Origin: a virus
DNA: 64,000 nucleotides
Strand: one strand, 5' to 3'
IMG/VR virus record: IMGVR_UViG_3300020193_000015
The notes beneath the pieces are model-generated. The model saw only the letters and a list, made by a program, of their open reading frames with translations. It made no database searches and was not told where the DNA came from. This document shows positions 43,856-63,833 of this stretch, piece after piece (within the stretch, counting starts at the first letter, position 1; each line of letters opens with the position of its first letter). Both the position numbers and the translations under genes were made by a program.

Positions 43856-44779
43856 ATGAATGATAAGGTAAAAGGAGCATTGTGGGGAGGAGTTGTGGGA
43901 GATTCAGCTGGGATGTGCGCCGAATTCCTTCCGAGAGGGAGTTTTCCACCAATTACTGGATATAGAAGCGGTGGGCCATTCAATTTAGAAAAAGGGGCAT
44001 TCACCGATGACACTTCTATGGCCTTGTGTTTGGCTGATAGCATTGCCACTGTTGGTTGGGACTTGAAAGATCAATTGAAACGGTATGTAGATTGGTATGA
44101 AAATGGAAAATATTCAGTAAATGGTAAATGTTTTGATATTGGCTGTACAACTAGGCATGCTTTAAATGAATTTATTCGTACTGGAGAAGTTAATGCAGAC
44201 CTAGACGAAAATGCTTCTGGCAATGGTTGCATAATGAGACTTTCTGCCGTTCCAGCCTATTATAGATATCTTTTCCCTCACTATTTGCCTGAATTAATGG
44301 TAAAGGCCGAAGAGTCTAGTGCAACAACTCACGGAAGCGAACAATGCAAATCTAGTTGTCGTTATATGACTGCAATTATTTGTGCTTTTATTCATGGAGA
44401 TTATACAAAAGATGAAGTTTTATCAACAAATTGGAGAATACTAAAAGAAATTGAAAACTTAAAGCCTTTGCATCCTTTAGTTAAAACTATTGCAAATGGC
44501 AGTTTTAAAACAAAAACTTTAGAAGAAATTGATTCATCAGGATGGGTGATTGCTACGCTTGAAGCGGCAATTTATTCATTTTATCATTCGAATAGTTTTG
44601 AAGAAGCAGTATTTCGTTCTTGCAACATGGGATTAGATGCAGATACGGTAGGTTGCGTTACAGGCCAAATTGCTGGTGCGTATTATGGTTTTGATGCTAT
44701 CCCCAAGGAACTAATTGAAGGTTTGAGTAGAAAAGACATGCTGGAAGAATATTTCGGCAAGTTATATAAAGGAAACTAA
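43856..44779 (+). CDS. ADP-ribosylglycohydrolase (DraG/ARH family)
   Basis: GALWGGVVGDSAGMCAEF; DDTSMALCLADSI. Confidence 0.75.
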   Translation: MNDKVKGALWGGVVGDSAGMCAEFLPRGSFPPITGYRSGGPFNLEKGAFTDDTSMALCLADSIATVGWDLKDQLKRYVDWYENGKYSVNGKCFDIGCTTRHALNEFIRTGEVNADLDENASGNGCIMRLSAVPAYYRYLFPHYLPELMVKAEESSATTHGSEQCKSSCRYMTAIICAFIHGDYTKDEVLSTNWRILKEIENLKPLHPLVKTIANGSFKTKTLEEIDSSGWVIATLEAAIYSFYHSNSFEEAVFRSCNMGLDADTVGCVTGQIAGAYYGFDAIPKELIEGLSRKDMLEEYFGKLYKGN

Positions 44780-55821: not shown

Positions 55822-56140
55822 AAAAGCAAAAAAAGCTTTCCTTGATGGCTATAAAACCTATTCCCCAGAGAAGGAAGGCTATGGTTCTCCCTCTGATTGG
55901 GTAGAGAATTTCCGTTCTAGGATGGGTTTAAATGAAGCCAAAGAGGTTCTAGGAGACAATGATCCCTTTAACATCCTTGGACTGCCTAAAGGGGCAAGCT
56001 GGGGCGAAATTAAGTCAGCCTACCGTAAACTGGCCATGCAAACTCATCCTGACCGCAACCCAGGTGATGAGGAAGCTGCTATTAAATTTAAGAAAGTCCA
56101 AGCTGCGTATGAAATTCTAGAGGCAAGATATAAGGAGTAA
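55811..56140 (+). CDS. J-domain (DnaJ-like) protein
   Basis: [49 protein letters not shown] with HPD. Confidence 0.8.
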
Positions 56141-57041: not shown

Positions 57042-57062
57042 GAGAAATAAAAAAGGAAAAAA

Positions 57063-57314
57063 ATGGCTAACCAATTACAAGTCCTGCGAATCCCTGTAAA
57101 AGATGCTCTGCCCGATAACGATCAATGGACGAATCGCTTCGAAATTCGTAGTCAAACCAGTAATCGTGTGTATATTGTGGCTCAGAATAAGGCTAAACGG
57201 CACTTCGGGTGCAGTTGCCCGGCGTACCGTGTTCACCGTCATTGCAAGCATCTGAAGGCTTTGGCCCTTCCTTGCTATGAAAAGCCTCATGAAGTTCAAG
57301 TTACTAAGGGGTAA
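57063..57314 (+). CDS. SWIM zinc-finger-like small protein
   Basis: CSCPAYRVHRHCKH (CxC..CxH). Confidence 0.4.
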   Translation: MANQLQVLRIPVKDALPDNDQWTNRFEIRSQTSNRVYIVAQNKAKRHFGCSCPAYRVHRHCKHLKALALPCYEKPHEVQVTKG

Positions 57315-57522
57315 ATTATGAAAAACCCTTTTGACCAATTAAGTTGGATAGGATTGTTGTTTTTGCTAGAACGCACAGACTTTAATGAACCTTAGATGGG
57401 TTTGGATTTGCTTCAACTATGAGACAAGAGTTGTTAGAGGCAGCGAATCGCAAAGTTCAAGCAAATAATAATGATCCAATTATGATGGGAGTTCTTCAAC
57501 AAATTCGCAAAAGATTAAATTA

Positions 57523-59669: not shown

Positions 59670-59705
59670 GTGCCGTTTTATTCTCAAGGGAATAAAAGGA
59701 TGCAC
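59670..59705 (+). promoter_or_regulatory. conserved hairpin motif (copy G), perfect stem TTTTATTC/GAATAAAA
   Basis: read directly; an MHEKTTRD uORF, then the gene at 59729. Confidence 0.55.
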
Positions 59706-59728
59706 GAAAAAACAACTAGAGACTGAAA

Positions 59729-60571
59729 ATGCGTAGAGGCAATAATAATTCCTGGTTAATGCTGTCCAATTTAGTCCCCGAAACCAAAAATGATGTTCTA
59801 CTTGGCATCAATTTAGGCGCTGACTACACTGCGGAGCATGAATGGGGAATTGATGGTCTTAAACAATCATTCAAGATCAAGGATGAAGGTTTAGGTATTG
59901 AAAAGAGACGTATAGAAGATTGCTCAAAAGTTGAATACAGCGAAAAAGTTAAAACTGTAAAGAAAACAAAGACAAAAGAAGCAGTCTTATTTGTTAATCG
60001 CTATGGTTTGCCAAATTTCGCTGATAGGATTTGTGAAGATGGCGAACTAAATTGGCCTTGTTATTTTAATCCTACTATTCCAAAGGATTTAGTAACAGCT
60101 TGGAGCGAAGATGATTTTGGCATTCGTGTAAGAAACGAAGAAGTTGCCAAACTTAATGAACTTTATCAAGAATTTAAGAAAAAGAATGTCGCTGTTTGGG
60201 TAGGTGGTGGCCATGTTTTCCAAAACGGTGGTCTTATTTTTGGAATTATTGATAGGATTCCAGAACAATATAAACAACAAATGTATGATAGCGACCTGGA
60301 CAGGCAGAACTTAAATGAAGCTGCTGAAAAGACAGGTATTAAAAAGAAATTGGAAGATGCAGATAAAGGTAAAAGATGGGAACTTAAGGAGTTTGGCTTT
60401 TATGCATTAAGTCCACGATGGGCCAAAGAACGAAAAGAAATTGAAACACAATACCCTGTAATTTTCTGGCTTAACCCTAACCATCAAGATAGGTTTAAAG
60501 CTGGGTATTTTAGTGTGGAAAATTTGAAAGATTGGATGCTGAATAAGGGTCCGATTATCAAAAAGTCATGA
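59729..60571 (+). CDS. hypothetical protein
   Basis: ORF track. Confidence 0.45.
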   Translation: MRRGNNNSWLMLSNLVPETKNDVLLGINLGADYTAEHEWGIDGLKQSFKIKDEGLGIEKRRIEDCSKVEYSEKVKTVKKTKTKEAVLFVNRYGLPNFADRICEDGELNWPCYFNPTIPKDLVTAWSEDDFGIRVRNEEVAKLNELYQEFKKKNVAVWVGGGHVFQNGGLIFGIIDRIPEQYKQQMYDSDLDRQNLNEAAEKTGIKKKLEDADKGKRWELKEFGFYALSPRWAKERKEIETQYPVIFWLNPNHQDRFKAGYFSVENLKDWMLNKGPIIKKS

Positions 60572-61071
60572 GTTACAAAGATCACGCCAAGATTAGTCAA
60601 TTACGCTATACCGATCCGAAACTTTCAAAAACCGGCTTTGAATTTAAAGTTGACCGCTGGTTTACGCCAGTAATCGACCCTGATAACTTGGCTTATTATT
60701 CTTTATTTAAGCCATTTAATCTGTCATATTATCTAAGCCCACGTCTGCCTATTGACATGGGTTTGACTGACTTTGAGACAATATTTGGGAAAGTGCCTAA
60801 TGTATTGAGAATGCCCATTAAGTTTCCCAATACTGAATACAGAATCCCAAAGGAATTTGCTAGACTTCAACCATTCTTTCAAAGATTAGCTGGATATGAG
60901 GCTTGGATTAATGAACAGCATGATAGTTCTTTCGCTCATATGGCATTACCCAACAGTTTATTTGAGAAGCGGGTGTCGGTCAACGGGACTTTGAATATCA
61001 TATTCTTTAATTTTTCCGAGTTATCTGTGAAGGATTCATTGATCCAGAGTTTGAAGTTTCGCATGAAATAG
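60568..61071 (+). CDS. hypothetical protein
   Basis: ORF track. Confidence 0.4.
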   Translation: MSYKDHAKISQLRYTDPKLSKTGFEFKVDRWFTPVIDPDNLAYYSLFKPFNLSYYLSPRLPIDMGLTDFETIFGKVPNVLRMPIKFPNTEYRIPKEFARLQPFFQRLAGYEAWINEQHDSSFAHMALPNSLFEKRVSVNGTLNIIFFNFSELSVKDSLIQSLKFRMK

Positions 61072-61079
61072 TTATAGAT

Positions 61080-61568
61080 ATGGTTATGAAATTTAAAGAG
61101 TGGTTTAGATTAGATGAAGGATTGCAGATCATACACATTGATCCAGAAGAGGATTGGGAGTATGGGGAGCAGGCTTATCAGATAGCTAAGATGGTAAATA
61201 TTCGTCCATCACGGAACAAGAATCCTACGATAATTGCCTTAAACGACAAATCGGAGGTAATTGGTGCGGCATTTACGTCATGGGAGGACGATCATGATGC
61301 TACGCAAGAGGCAGGGGAGCCGATAGCTCATTATGATTTTGATGTTGTGGTACATCCATCGTGGCAGGGATATGAGATGGTGGGGATGAAGTTGATACGT
61401 CAGGCGGAATTAGAGCGTAAGAATTTAGAATCACAATATGGTCAGAAGGCATATACACGAACTTGGGTAGTGAATCCGAAGTTAGCTAGGGTATTACAGA
61501 CGCCACGCTATGGATACGAGGCAGATTCCGAGTATTCTGATGGTTCTGCTCATTTGAGGAAGTGGTAA
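61080..61568 (+). CDS. hypothetical protein
   Basis: ORF track. Confidence 0.4.
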   Translation: MVMKFKEWFRLDEGLQIIHIDPEEDWEYGEQAYQIAKMVNIRPSRNKNPTIIALNDKSEVIGAAFTSWEDDHDATQEAGEPIAHYDFDVVVHPSWQGYEMVGMKLIRQAELERKNLESQYGQKAYTRTWVVNPKLARVLQTPRYGYEADSEYSDGSAHLRKW

Positions 61569-61759
61569 TGTTTAAAAAATGGTTAGAGAATGAGGAATTA
61601 GTGCAATAAAAACGAAATGCACGAAATGTCACTCATTCAATTGTCTTTATTTGAAGATGGTCGTCTATTTGCATGACGGTCATCATCGTGTTGTATCGAC
61701 GTTTCTGGCGGGGCGGAAAGAACTCGATCCATCCGAATATCATGTCACCAATTGGACCT

Positions 61760-62470
61760 ATTCGGTAGGCATTAAGGCTCCTTATAGGCCACGGACGATT
61801 TGGCGGAAGTGGTCCACGTCTTCACGGCTGTCCTGGATTTGTCCTTCAAGGAAAATCTCAAGCCACTGCCCATCAACGCCTCCTAACTCGTCAGAGTCAC
61901 GCATACGCTTGACGTAGTTGGTGACTACCTCTTCTTCCATCGTCAAGGCATACCGAAGTATATCCTTCGGGTCCGTCATGAGGGGGAAACTATTGCTTTC
62001 TTCCGTGGCTTTTCCACCCAGGCCCACGATCACGTCCGAGAAGGCCGTAACGTGAAGCATCTCGCCAGCGGCTTCTTTGAGGAATAATTCCTTGTATTCC
62101 TCGCAGTGGAGGCCCTGGACGGCGCTGGCGTGATACAGGTAGAAGCGAAGATGCTTCCACTCGTTCTTGAGATCGTCGTTCAGCAAGTCAATCATCTGTT
62201 GCTTGTTCATTCTTTTCTTTACTTTCCAAAGGGCGTCGTGCCGTGGTCGTGGGAGTATTCCATTTCCTTGAAACCGCCGTAGTTGAACGACGGCCTTTCG
62301 TTGGATTGGGCGACTTGCCAAGCCAACTCAAAAGCGTAGCACGCCACGCTTTGAATGCCCGCCATGTTGATCCGGTCAACCGTGTCGCTAGGCGTATGGT
62401 AGGCACTGATGCATCTGAAATTGAACCAGATCATTACCATCGTTTCCCCGGATTTCATGGCGATGGCATT
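61760..62470. other. GC-rich segment of foreign (bacterial-like) composition inserted in AT-rich phage sequence
   Basis: abrupt composition change visible by eye; carries minus-strand ferritin-like and peptidase-fragment ORFs; flanking plus-strand phage ORF pieces (61651.. and ..62896) lie in different frames. Confidence 0.5.
61782..62210 (-). CDS. ferritin-like (bacterioferritin/Dps-type) protein
   Basis: IDLLNDDLKNEWKHLRFYLYHASAVQGLHCEEYKELFLKEAAGEMLHVTAFSDVIVGLGG follows the ferritin-like diiron helix pattern; start taken at MNKQQ (the ORF track extends to 62321). Confidence 0.5.
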   Translation of the reverse strand: MNKQQMIDLLNDDLKNEWKHLRFYLYHASAVQGLHCEEYKELFLKEAAGEMLHVTAFSDVIVGLGGKATEESNSFPLMTDPKDILRYALTMEEEVVTNYVKRMRDSDELGGVDGQWLEIFLEGQIQDSREDVDHFRQIVRGL

Positions 62471-62473
62471 CAA
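62219..62473 (-). pseudogene. 3' fragment of an M28-family peptidase gene
   Basis: YHTPSDTVDRIN motif; the 5' part is missing at the segment boundary. Confidence 0.4.
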
Positions 62474-62896
62474 GGGACTAAATTAACTCCAAAGGTAAAT
62501 GTTGAGCATTCTTATATTGTAACGACTGCTCCAGCTACAGAGTTTTGCTTGCAACCATTCTTCCTTAAACATTTGGATGAAGCAAAGCATAATTTCTTTT
62601 TGGAATTTGACAAGCAAGCCAAAAAAGATAACATTTATACATCTTTACCGGGGCATTTGTATCTGATTGATCCTTATATGGTTCATAGGACACCTAAGAT
62701 TACTAAAAAGTGCAGAAGGGTATTCGTCAGGATTACATATGCATTTACTGAATTGCAACATCCTAAAAATACTGTGAACCCTATGTTTGAAGGGCAGCAA
62801 TATGAAAAAAGGGTGGATATCAGAGAAAATCTAACACCTTTTGAATTTGCTGTGCCTTATCATCTGTATGGAATTAATTGTACCAAGAAAGCGTAG
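62470..62896 (+). CDS. C-terminal portion of a phage gene apparently split by the GC-rich insertion
   Basis: AT-rich coding continuation of ORF 62243..62896 after the patch; the putative N-terminal piece is 61651..about 61765. Confidence 0.3.
62873..62887 (+). promoter_or_regulatory. 15-mer variant ATTAATTGTACCAAG (copy 12)
   Basis: followed by a perfect 10-bp hairpin AGAGAATCAC..GTGATTCTCT, then ATG 62976. Confidence 0.5.
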
Positions 62897-62975
62897 ATAA
62901 GGCTTGACTTTAGAGAATCACATTTGTAGGATAAGTGATTCTCTGGTTTTTACAATTTCAAAAAGGACAAGGAAA

Positions 62976-63197
62976 ATGTCGAAAACGGAGTATTTGCTAA
63001 GAAGTGTGTTGCGGAATGTGAATCAGATTCAAGCAGATGATGAATTCACAAAAAATAGGCTATCCGATATATCCTATTTTACCAAAGCAGCTATAATTGC
63101 CCAAGAATTCCATGAACAATATACTGCTGATGACCAAAGGGGCCGGGATAAACTACGTGATAGGAGCAATTATTTTTTGAAGACCATTGACCATTAG
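62976..63197 (+). CDS. hypothetical protein
   Basis: ATG preceded by AAGGACAAGGAAA; the ORF track starts at 62904. Confidence 0.35.
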   Translation: MSKTEYLLRSVLRNVNQIQADDEFTKNRLSDISYFTKAAIIAQEFHEQYTADDQRGRDKLRDRSNYFLKTIDH

Positions 63198-63579
63198 TTG
63201 CCAACCACCTGTGCCGGTTTTTGTTTGTGCATATTGGTCAATTAGTTGTTTTATTTGTAATTGGATTGGTCCGGTTGAACTCGGCGTGTTGTCAAGTTGT
63301 TGGGCGGCTGTTTTATTGGTATTGATAGACTTGTGGAGCATTTTTATGAAGCAAAAATTCAGTGTAGCGGAAGACACGACAGGCGACAAAGTGCATAAAA
63401 TCATGGTGGAAAACTGCCCTACTTCTGGGCTTCAACGAACAGAACAAATAGGTATGTATTTTTGGAATAGAATTTGGCTAATGCGTCCATGTACTTTAAG
63501 TGAGATAGAACATATAGTTAAAGTTGTCAAAGACTTAGAAGACCAACTTTGGGGTGTGGGAGAAACGTGCTGCAAGTAG
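63187..63579 (+). CDS. hypothetical membrane protein
   Basis: ORF track. Confidence 0.3.
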   Translation: MTISCQPPVPVFVCAYWSISCFICNWIGPVELGVLSSCWAAVLLVLIDLWSIFMKQKFSVAEDTTGDKVHKIMVENCPTSGLQRTEQIGMYFWNRIWLMRPCTLSEIEHIVKVVKDLEDQLWGVGETCCK

Positions 63580-63833
63580 AGCGTCACCATCACAAAGGCA
63601 ACGATCAGATCGTCGCCCTCTGCAAGACCAGCAAGGAGTTGTACAAGCAAGTAGTTATCACGCCCAAGACCTTCGGGTTCGTGATTGACGTGCAGTACGA
63701 AGTACCCGATCAGCCAAAAGGTGAGAAACATAAAGGTGTTTGTGCCATAGGCAGGAAAGTAATCAGGGACGAGGATGTTTCAAGGAACGGTTTGTTTCCG
63801 TCATCGTCCAATAGGAGAATTGCCAGTAATTAA
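63570..63833 (+). pseudogene. degraded TnpB-like fragment
   Basis: KQVVITPKTFGFVIDVQYE matches KQVMITPKTFGFIVDIQYE of the 16416 TnpB-like gene; the RuvC-I Asp is lost (GVCAIG); composition is more GC-rich than the surroundings. Confidence 0.45.

Follow-up and report, generated by a model that had tools for sequence, protein, structure and literature searches.

The 64-kb window analysed here (64,000 nucleotides of the IMG/VR virus record IMGVR_UViG_3300020193_000015) contains a phage gene, designated X in this report, that is interrupted by about 1.46 kb of DNA from at least two other large phages. The insert (about 60943-62407, 46.5% guanine plus cytosine (GC)) is made up of three pieces, A, B and C, every one of which is of phage origin. 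Very probably it is a scar left when co-infecting phages recombined illegitimately at microhomologies. Two intact passenger genes arrived with it, a GNAT-like gene in the sense of the surrounding gene array and a ferritin-like gene antisense to it; the accompanying pieces of an M28 peptidase gene, of a donor-lineage gene Y, and of the genes ORF272 and ART-PolyVal are debris. An initial annotation of the window had described a segment of about 700 bp and had named a recombination scar among its possible explanations. The foreign DNA is twice that long and is itself a mosaic, and the scar is the explanation that the data bear out: the breakpoints are sharp, remnants of truncated genes lie where the pieces meet, and the four junctions have overlaps of only 3-18 nt, as judged between parental proxies.

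The features of the locus, in window coordinates, are the following.

60568-60942, plus strand: Xn, the first ~124 codons of gene X, 48-50% identical to homologue residues 2-123
60925-60948: junction J1 (X/A), crossover at ~60940-60942, with an imperfect overlap of ~14/18 nt over 60925-60942
about 60943-61005, minus strand: piece A, part of gene Y of the donor lineage (codons ~143-170), running antisense to X, recognised by identity to contig L027
~61005: junction J2 (A/B), 3-6 nt overlap, CTTT
61006-61605, plus strand: piece B, a cassette of a third phage type (L020/L023-like, ~41% GC), recognised by nucleotide identity
61064-61008, minus strand: first 19 codons of a divergent 272-residue gene (ORF272), MRNFKLWINESFTDNSEKL, its start compared with L020-type phages
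61080-61568, plus strand: intact 162-residue GNAT-like gene in piece B, co-oriented with the array, with a weak PF13508 match
61568-61609, plus strand: first ~13 codons of an ART-PolyVal gene, MFKKWLENEELVQ and then a stop, compared with MFKKWLENEEAVQP in L020-type phages
61600-61605: junction J3 (B/C), AGTGCA
61598-62408, minus strand: piece C, a GC-rich block of 811 bp (50.6% GC), 100% identical to donor contigs
61598-61760, no strand assigned: 163 bp holding the open reading frame (ORF) from 61651 (...LHDGHHRVVSTF...), identical to donor contigs, origin not traced
61761-61772, minus strand: Y codons 1-4 (MPTE), then a breakpoint already present in donor contig L001, from an alignment of the window with L001, L027 and L018
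61782-62210, minus strand: intact 142-residue ferritin-like gene (PF00210)
62219-62408, minus strand: M28 peptidase remnant, the last 62 codons and stop, catalytic domain absent, assigned by donor identity
between 62408 and 62409: junction J4 (C/X), G/TGCAT, with a 1-nt offset
62408-62896, plus strand: Xc, the last 162 codons of X, from Asp124, 75-79% identical to the C-terminal part of the homologues

The interrupted gene

When 60568-60948 is joined to 62408-62896, the product is a 289-residue protein that is colinear with the intact homologues P0002-P0008 and has no indel at the joint, where FAHMAL followed by DASEIEPDHYHRF in the reconstructed protein corresponds to FCHITF followed by DKSVVSRGEYHRF in the homologue. 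Xc matches the C-terminal ~160 residues of a family of ~265-282-residue proteins encoded on large phage contigs (up to 212 kb), and X is uninterrupted in L010-L013, as it also is in large phage contigs from IMG/VR, of which four measure 340-480 kb. The Xn reading frame continues into the foreign DNA as far as a stop at 61069-61071. The initial annotation had proposed that one phage gene was split, with ORF pieces at 61651 and up to 62896 as its halves. The split gene is real and the right-hand ORF is indeed its 3' part, but the left half was misassigned: the ORF at 61651 lies inside the block 61598-62408 that is wholly identical to the donor, it has no similarity to the X family, and the true N-terminal half is at 60568-~60942.

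X belongs to a ~281-residue family with the double-stranded beta-helix fold of Fe(II)/2-oxoglutarate (2OG) dioxygenases. Among 17 X homologues His 140, Asp 142 and His 216 are invariant and Arg 227/Arg 231 nearly so, which supplies the iron triad and a basic 2OG-binding residue, and the window's Xc carries FHGDG...VHRTP...RVFVR (the HxD...H...R motif). The homologue P0004 had no Pfam match at E<=1; its sole curated match is PHROG phrog_1843, whose function is not annotated. The split is within a predicted core beta-strand (residues 118-128) and not between domains, and the interrupted X is therefore probably inactive. An in-frame ATG at 62396, four codons ahead of Xc and in a poor ribosome-binding context, could let a C-terminal fragment of X be made. 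The gene looks dispensable and repeatedly damaged. In other phages it is independently disrupted: it is 5'-truncated at residue ~145, with unrelated sequence upstream, in L017 (JGI 3300036766; L017:1041-1580) and apparently frameshifted in L045 (L045:3001-3776).

The junctions and their occurrence in other contigs

At J1, TTCGCTCAT (F-A-H) is X-like and GGCATTACCC onward is the reverse complement of L027, so that the family-invariant Thr 122 has been replaced (HMAL in place of HITF). A codon-exact insertion into X was considered and discarded, because DNA comparison with L027 assigns the last three apparent X codons (MAL) to the donor. The loss from X is at most ~7 nt, including the invariant Thr 122 codon. 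The outer ends of the insert are arbitrary breakpoints, because they lie inside the coding sequences of other phages, at M28 codon 313 and Y codon ~170.

So small a loss, with both halves of X still open, is what a site-specific mobile element (a group I or II intron, a homing-endonuclease cassette, or an insertion sequence or transposon) would leave, and the donor lineage described below has homing-type genes nearby (NUMOD3/Phage_endo_I in L001, a Cys-rich ORF in L019). A search of 60400-63100 on both strands recovered no Rfam family at E<=10, and hence no recognised group I or II intron core. ORF, Pfam and PHROG scans of the insert revealed no endonuclease, transposase or integrase ORF, and at its ends there were no terminal inverted repeats or target-site duplications, only short repeats at chance level. 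As neither end is an element terminus, we regard a mobile element in X as very improbable.

The junctions are reproduced by nine contigs from nine samples and three assembly pipelines (JGI, ENA and Logan). Matches to parts of the locus are as follows.

L007, JGI 3300020197: window 59677-62506, 100% identity
L008, JGI 3300020603: window 60337-62803, 100%
L004, ENA ERZ27247963: window 61399-62503, 99.6%
L005, SRR7052952: window 61762-62803, 100%
L014, SRR7052762: window 61555-63695, 100%
L015, SRR7990334: window 61941-63018, 100%
L016, SRR7008372: window 62061-63005, 100%
L009, JGI 3300020221: window 60955-61584, 99.4%

J1 is spanned by L007 and L008, J2 by these two and L009, J3 by L007, L008, L004 and L014, and J4 by L007, L008, L004, L005, L014, L015 and L016. 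The split-X strain occurs in at least seven samples from several projects; the metagenome JGI 3300020197 comes from Lake Tanganyika (bioRxiv 10.1101/834861). The chimeric assembly raised in the initial annotation is rejected, because the same joins recur in three pipelines and several samples and the overlaps are far below assembler k-mers.

The sibling strain L009 has A and B in common with the window as far as 61584, after which a different, AT-rich minus-strand ORF of 123 residues (L009:631-1111) takes the place of the ferritin block. Relatives of this ORF, 48-57% identical, are on IMG/VR phage contigs of 22-306 kb. Because L009 diverges after 61584, at least one more exchange has occurred at this locus.

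Piece C and its donor

The window has a GC content of 36% (mean 0.36, standard deviation 0.047, in 200-bp windows), and almost all of its long ORFs are on the plus strand. Throughout the 920 bp from 61621 to 62540 the GC fraction never falls below 0.46, and it reaches a maximum of 0.555. No other excursion in the window is as long or as strong; the second longest extends over 340 bp. By region, the GC fraction is 0.375 in Xn, 0.44 in A, 0.41 in B, 0.506 in C and 0.365 in Xc. The compositional shift noted initially is thus real, as is the minus-strand position of the ferritin and M28 ORFs against the plus-strand array, which is seen in the ORF map. The edges then given for the shift, 61760 and 62470, were wrong; identity to the donor places them at 61598 and 62408.

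An exact-protein look-up found the ferritin on the Logan contigs L001-L003 and L006 (SRR16108667-73), and in an ungapped comparison 61598-62408 is 100% identical to all four, with the identity stopping abruptly inside the M28 gene. Read in donor orientation, piece C consists of the last 62 M28 codons, the ferritin gene, Y codons 1-4 and the 163 bp. In the donor contigs a full-length M28 gene precedes the ferritin gene, which starts 8 bp after it, and the pair is found beside Terminase_6N, NUMOD3/Phage_endo_I, PDDEXK and 2'-5' RNA-ligase/Acb1 genes. The GC content of L001 is 49.6% along its whole length. A module of terminase (-), M28 (+), ferritin (+) and Y (+) recurs among the loci of the donor lineage, with a local GC of 35-52%.

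L018, 226-kb contig: terminase/M28/ferritin/Y module
L019, 28.6-kb contig: gene order as in L018
L027, JGI contig: terminase/M28/ferritin/Y module
L032-L035, including a 241-kb contig: terminase/M28/ferritin/Y module
L048, 602-kb contig: the module without M28

L030 is a further locus of this lineage, whose members are uncultured jumbo phages on contigs of up to 226-602 kb. The donor terminase shares 54% identity with a 595-kb record of an uncultured huge phage, and ~31% with terminases of the T4 type.

Because the block is 100% identical to jumbo-phage contigs with a conserved M28-ferritin module, the immediate donor of piece C is a jumbo phage of ~50% GC and not a bacterium. The direction of transfer is from the donor lineage to the window phage, as the M28 gene is complete there but truncated here and the composition of the block is that of the donor. 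The ferritin had no tblastn match among 50,697 GenBank phage records, and the insert region had no nucleotide match in GenBank phages or PLSDB plasmids. Exact-pattern scans of IMG/VR for the ferritin and both flanks gave no matches, nor did an exact-pattern scan of metagenome contigs for the donor end, in a collection that evidently lacks the short contigs reachable through the protein index. In GTDB species genomes, a limited scan for peptide patterns gave one relative, 33% identical.

The initial annotation had called the segment bacterial-type and had offered a host-derived moron as one explanation. An abrupt change in GC and genes on the opposite strand do resemble either host DNA captured directly or an assembly chimera, and the M28 and ferritin families are known mostly from cells. 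Every context examined for this ferritin family is, however, terminase-adjacent phage DNA, the best match in a bacterial genome is the distant one just mentioned, and the junctions, with imperfect overlaps of at most 18 nt, are reproduced at 99.4-100% by the contigs listed above. We give almost no credence to a chimera or to direct capture from a bacterial host, and neither label is retained.

The ferritin|Y boundary is a variable spot of the donor lineage, because L019 has an additional ORF there, Cys-rich and of 221 residues (L019:8466-9131). A CYTH label for gene Y and an HNH label for this ORF were assigned by eye only, with nothing significant in Pfam, and were not kept. The four donor contigs all stop at one and the same base, the point of contact between B and C (window-equivalent 61598), which suggests a polymorphism in the donor population.

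The ferritin-like gene and the M28 remnant

The complete ferritin-like gene proposed initially was confirmed by PF00210, with a score of 50.2 bits (cut-off 24.5), E=3.4e-13 and coverage of profile positions 1-136 of 142. Its closest relatives in the PDB are 2qqy (E=3.7e-9) and a bacterioferritin (1.6e-5). Glu 17, Glu 50-x-x-His 53, Glu 92 and Glu 122 are invariant in 18 members of the family. The second ExxH is non-canonical, with Ser 128, Arg 129, Asp 131 and Asp 133 invariant instead, and its Glu and His are replaced in the alignment with 2qqy.

The neighbouring ORF, 62219-62473 on the minus strand, was also correctly recognised as the C-terminal end of an M28 peptidase: its final 62 residues agree at every position (62/62) with residues 313-374 of the 374-residue L001 protein, which matches Peptidase_M28 at E=5e-43 with the Pfam domain at residues 136-336. 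The 84-residue window ORF by itself had no Pfam hit. It is a gene remnant and not a peptidase, because only donor residues 313-374 are present and there is no complete catalytic domain with the two-zinc ligands. The 163-bp stretch at the other end of piece C (61598-61760) had no Pfam or PHROG hit and no similarity to X. A ParB-like reading of the 61651 ORF, guessed from its DGHHR motif, had no Pfam or PHROGs support and was dropped.

One alternative treats the scar as incidental and the ferritin-like gene, perhaps with the GNAT-like gene, as an adaptive moron or auxiliary gene kept for a benefit such as iron handling or protection from oxidative stress. The ferritin ORF is intact and keeps the donor's upstream sequence, and the split-X strain's presence in so many samples indicates that the insert is not strongly deleterious. 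The invariant di-iron-type residues and the synteny across a broad jumbo-phage lineage suggest that the protein would be functional in that lineage. On the other hand, complete identity to the donor leaves no time for a signal of selection in the recipient. Co-transcription with M28 is presumed in the donor, and the upstream M28 gene and its promoter have been lost here, where the ferritin gene is antisense to the entire array. Consensus scans were uninformative (12 promoter-like sites against 6.5 +/- 2.7 expected, two terminator-like sites against 2.2), and the sibling L009 has no ferritin gene at this position. We therefore consider adaptive retention unlikely, and use of the ferritin passenger by the recipient phage is unproven.

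Pieces A and B

Piece A is 90.5% identical in nucleotide sequence to L027 4357-4274 and 81-82% identical to L018 and L019, and by inspection its peptide, NMIFKVPLTDTRFSNKLLGNA, is the same as the corresponding stretch of the L027 Y protein. A 42-residue ORF at 60936-61064 on the minus strand is a chimera of the 19 ORF272 codons with ~22 codons of the Y C-terminal region, and it marks J2.

Over 61006-61605 piece B has 88.8% nucleotide identity to L020-L022, and over 61067-61591 it has 94% identity to L023 and L024; its flanks agree with the L020 context on both sides. The possibility that it is an intragenomic duplicate was set aside, as tblastx matched L020 and L023 nowhere else in the window. 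Its 162-residue ORF matches PF13508 weakly (17 bits, below the cut-off of 27; E=0.0076), and the homologue P0178 has a precomputed PF13508 hit. The identical protein is encoded on the JGI contigs L007-L009, and its homologues are free-standing genes of big phages (contigs up to 215-478 kb). A GNAT gene follows X in L012 and L013, but it has no similarity to the gene in piece B, and the two are not equated. As the GNAT-like gene is co-oriented with the array, it is likely to be transcribed along with it.

In L020 (L020:3328-5272) and L023 (L023:3325-4068) an ART-PolyVal ADP-ribosyltransferase gene regularly comes after the 162-residue GNAT-like gene, and L020-L022 continue with an AAA_33 kinase-like gene. 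Together these genes may form a conserved cluster for host takeover or anti-defence.

History of the insert

We lean slightly towards a two-step history in which a single fragment, pre-assembled in the donor, was captured in X. B and the 163 bp would first have replaced Y codons 5-142 in a donor phage. During a later co-infection, a break or template switch would have occurred at X codon ~121-124 of an AT-rich large freshwater phage, and ~1.46 kb, from M28 codon 313 through ferritin to Y codon ~170, would have been captured as a single donor fragment. The outer joins would have formed through the imperfect ~18-nt similarity at J1 and the G/TGCAT overlap at J4. The loss of at most ~7 nt from X is consistent with the repair of one break; a template switch and return in X would be an alternative to single-break repair. 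The two-step history is the most economical because A and C, which are collinear and in the same orientation as ferritin and Y in L027 and L018, keep the donor order (M28, ferritin, Y) around B, and because Y is already broken after codon 4 in the bona fide donor contig L001.

It is less likely, though possible, that A, B and C were instead added in the recipient by separate illegitimate events, with X serving as a tolerated "junkyard" in a dispensable gene. The best proxies of the three pieces do differ (L027 for A at 90%, L020/L023 for B at 89-94%, L001 for C at 100%), the divergence of L009 after 61584 into another minus-strand ORF requires at least one further event here, and X is damaged in L017 and L045 as well. 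If the hits were independent, however, the donor order and orientation of A and C around B would be a coincidence. The break after Y codon 4 also pre-exists in L001, and the ending of all four donor contigs at the B|C junction suggests that the variation was present in the donor.

Several observations weigh against the capture of a pre-assembled donor fragment by recombination between co-infecting phages. The proxies of A and B are only 81-94% identical, and J1 and J2 are accordingly placed within a few bases. The donor contigs stop at window-equivalent 61598, so that B and A can only be deduced to adjoin C in the donor. An intact X at >95% identity, which would represent the empty site, was not found, and the ancestral state is reconstructed from relatives that are at most 79% identical. 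The near-exact preservation of X would be expected from a site-specific element as well. Co-infection is itself a deduction, the sharing of a host is likewise undemonstrated, and the ferritin-like gene, the GNAT-like gene and the halves of X are known as predicted genes whose expression is undemonstrated.

A more speculative extension, which we consider improbable, is that X codon ~121-124 is a recurrent break-and-capture site, where breaks made by a host nuclease, or by one from a competing phage, are repaired with any DNA present. If so, the locus would record the phages that co-infect one host (a giant phage of 36% GC, a jumbo phage of 50% GC and a third phage of 41% GC), and working genes such as ferritin would occasionally cross lineages.

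Comparison with known systems

The process is one already known, caught unusually early, and the locus does not represent a new kind of system. In the Hendrix/Hatfull model, phage mosaicism arises when co-infecting phages undergo illegitimate or homeologous recombination. The insert in X agrees with this model in its sharp joints at arbitrary positions, short or imperfect homology, differing composition, gene debris and phage donors. It differs in that the joints are within genes and not at gene boundaries, not yet "cleaned" by selection, in that one piece retains 100% identity to its donor, which makes the example unusually fresh, and in that the partners are two jumbo-phage lineages of 36% and 50% GC.

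Morons, such as those of HK97 and the lambdoid phages, are extra genes with their own promoter and terminator that lie between phage genes. The intact ferritin-like gene resembles a moron in being an extra gene of atypical composition and opposite orientation to its surroundings. Unlike a moron, it is within another gene, comes from a phage core-adjacent module, arrived with non-functional debris, and has no convincing promoter or terminator of its own, the consensus scans not being above background.

Filler DNA is captured at double-strand breaks by end-joining or microhomology-mediated repair, and here too the sides of the target are almost exactly preserved, the microhomologies are short, and the filling is a patchwork of several fragments, although in X the patchwork seems to have been partly assembled earlier, in the donor. 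Phage genes are also split by introns and homing endonucleases, as in T4 td and nrdB. As in those cases, a phage enzyme gene is divided almost to the codon by ~1.5 kb containing ORFs, but the insert in X has no ribozyme and no endonuclease gene, and it ends in the coding sequences of other phages.

The locus shows mosaic joints arising at arbitrary microhomologies within genes before selection tidies them. If the recombination occurred as proposed, three compositionally distinct large phages would share a cell, a clue to host linkage for the uncultured jumbo phages of Lake Tanganyika. For annotation, the example advises caution: "bacterial-looking" GC-rich phage genes such as ferritin and M28 can stem from another phage lineage that conserves them. 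Recombination on diverged sequences has been described for lambda Red (PMC2327257), and gene flow between distant phages has been reported (bioRxiv 10.1101/2020.04.14.041137).

Other compositional excursions

A smaller GC-rich patch at 63481-63820, with a peak of 0.505, contains a 94-residue ORF (63549-63833) that had no PHROG hit, and the 100% match of contig L014 to the window runs up to 63695, within this patch. The patch may be another foreign one. Further short excursions of 220-260 bp, with peaks of 0.485-0.495, are at 55841-56080, 57061-57320 and 43861-44080.

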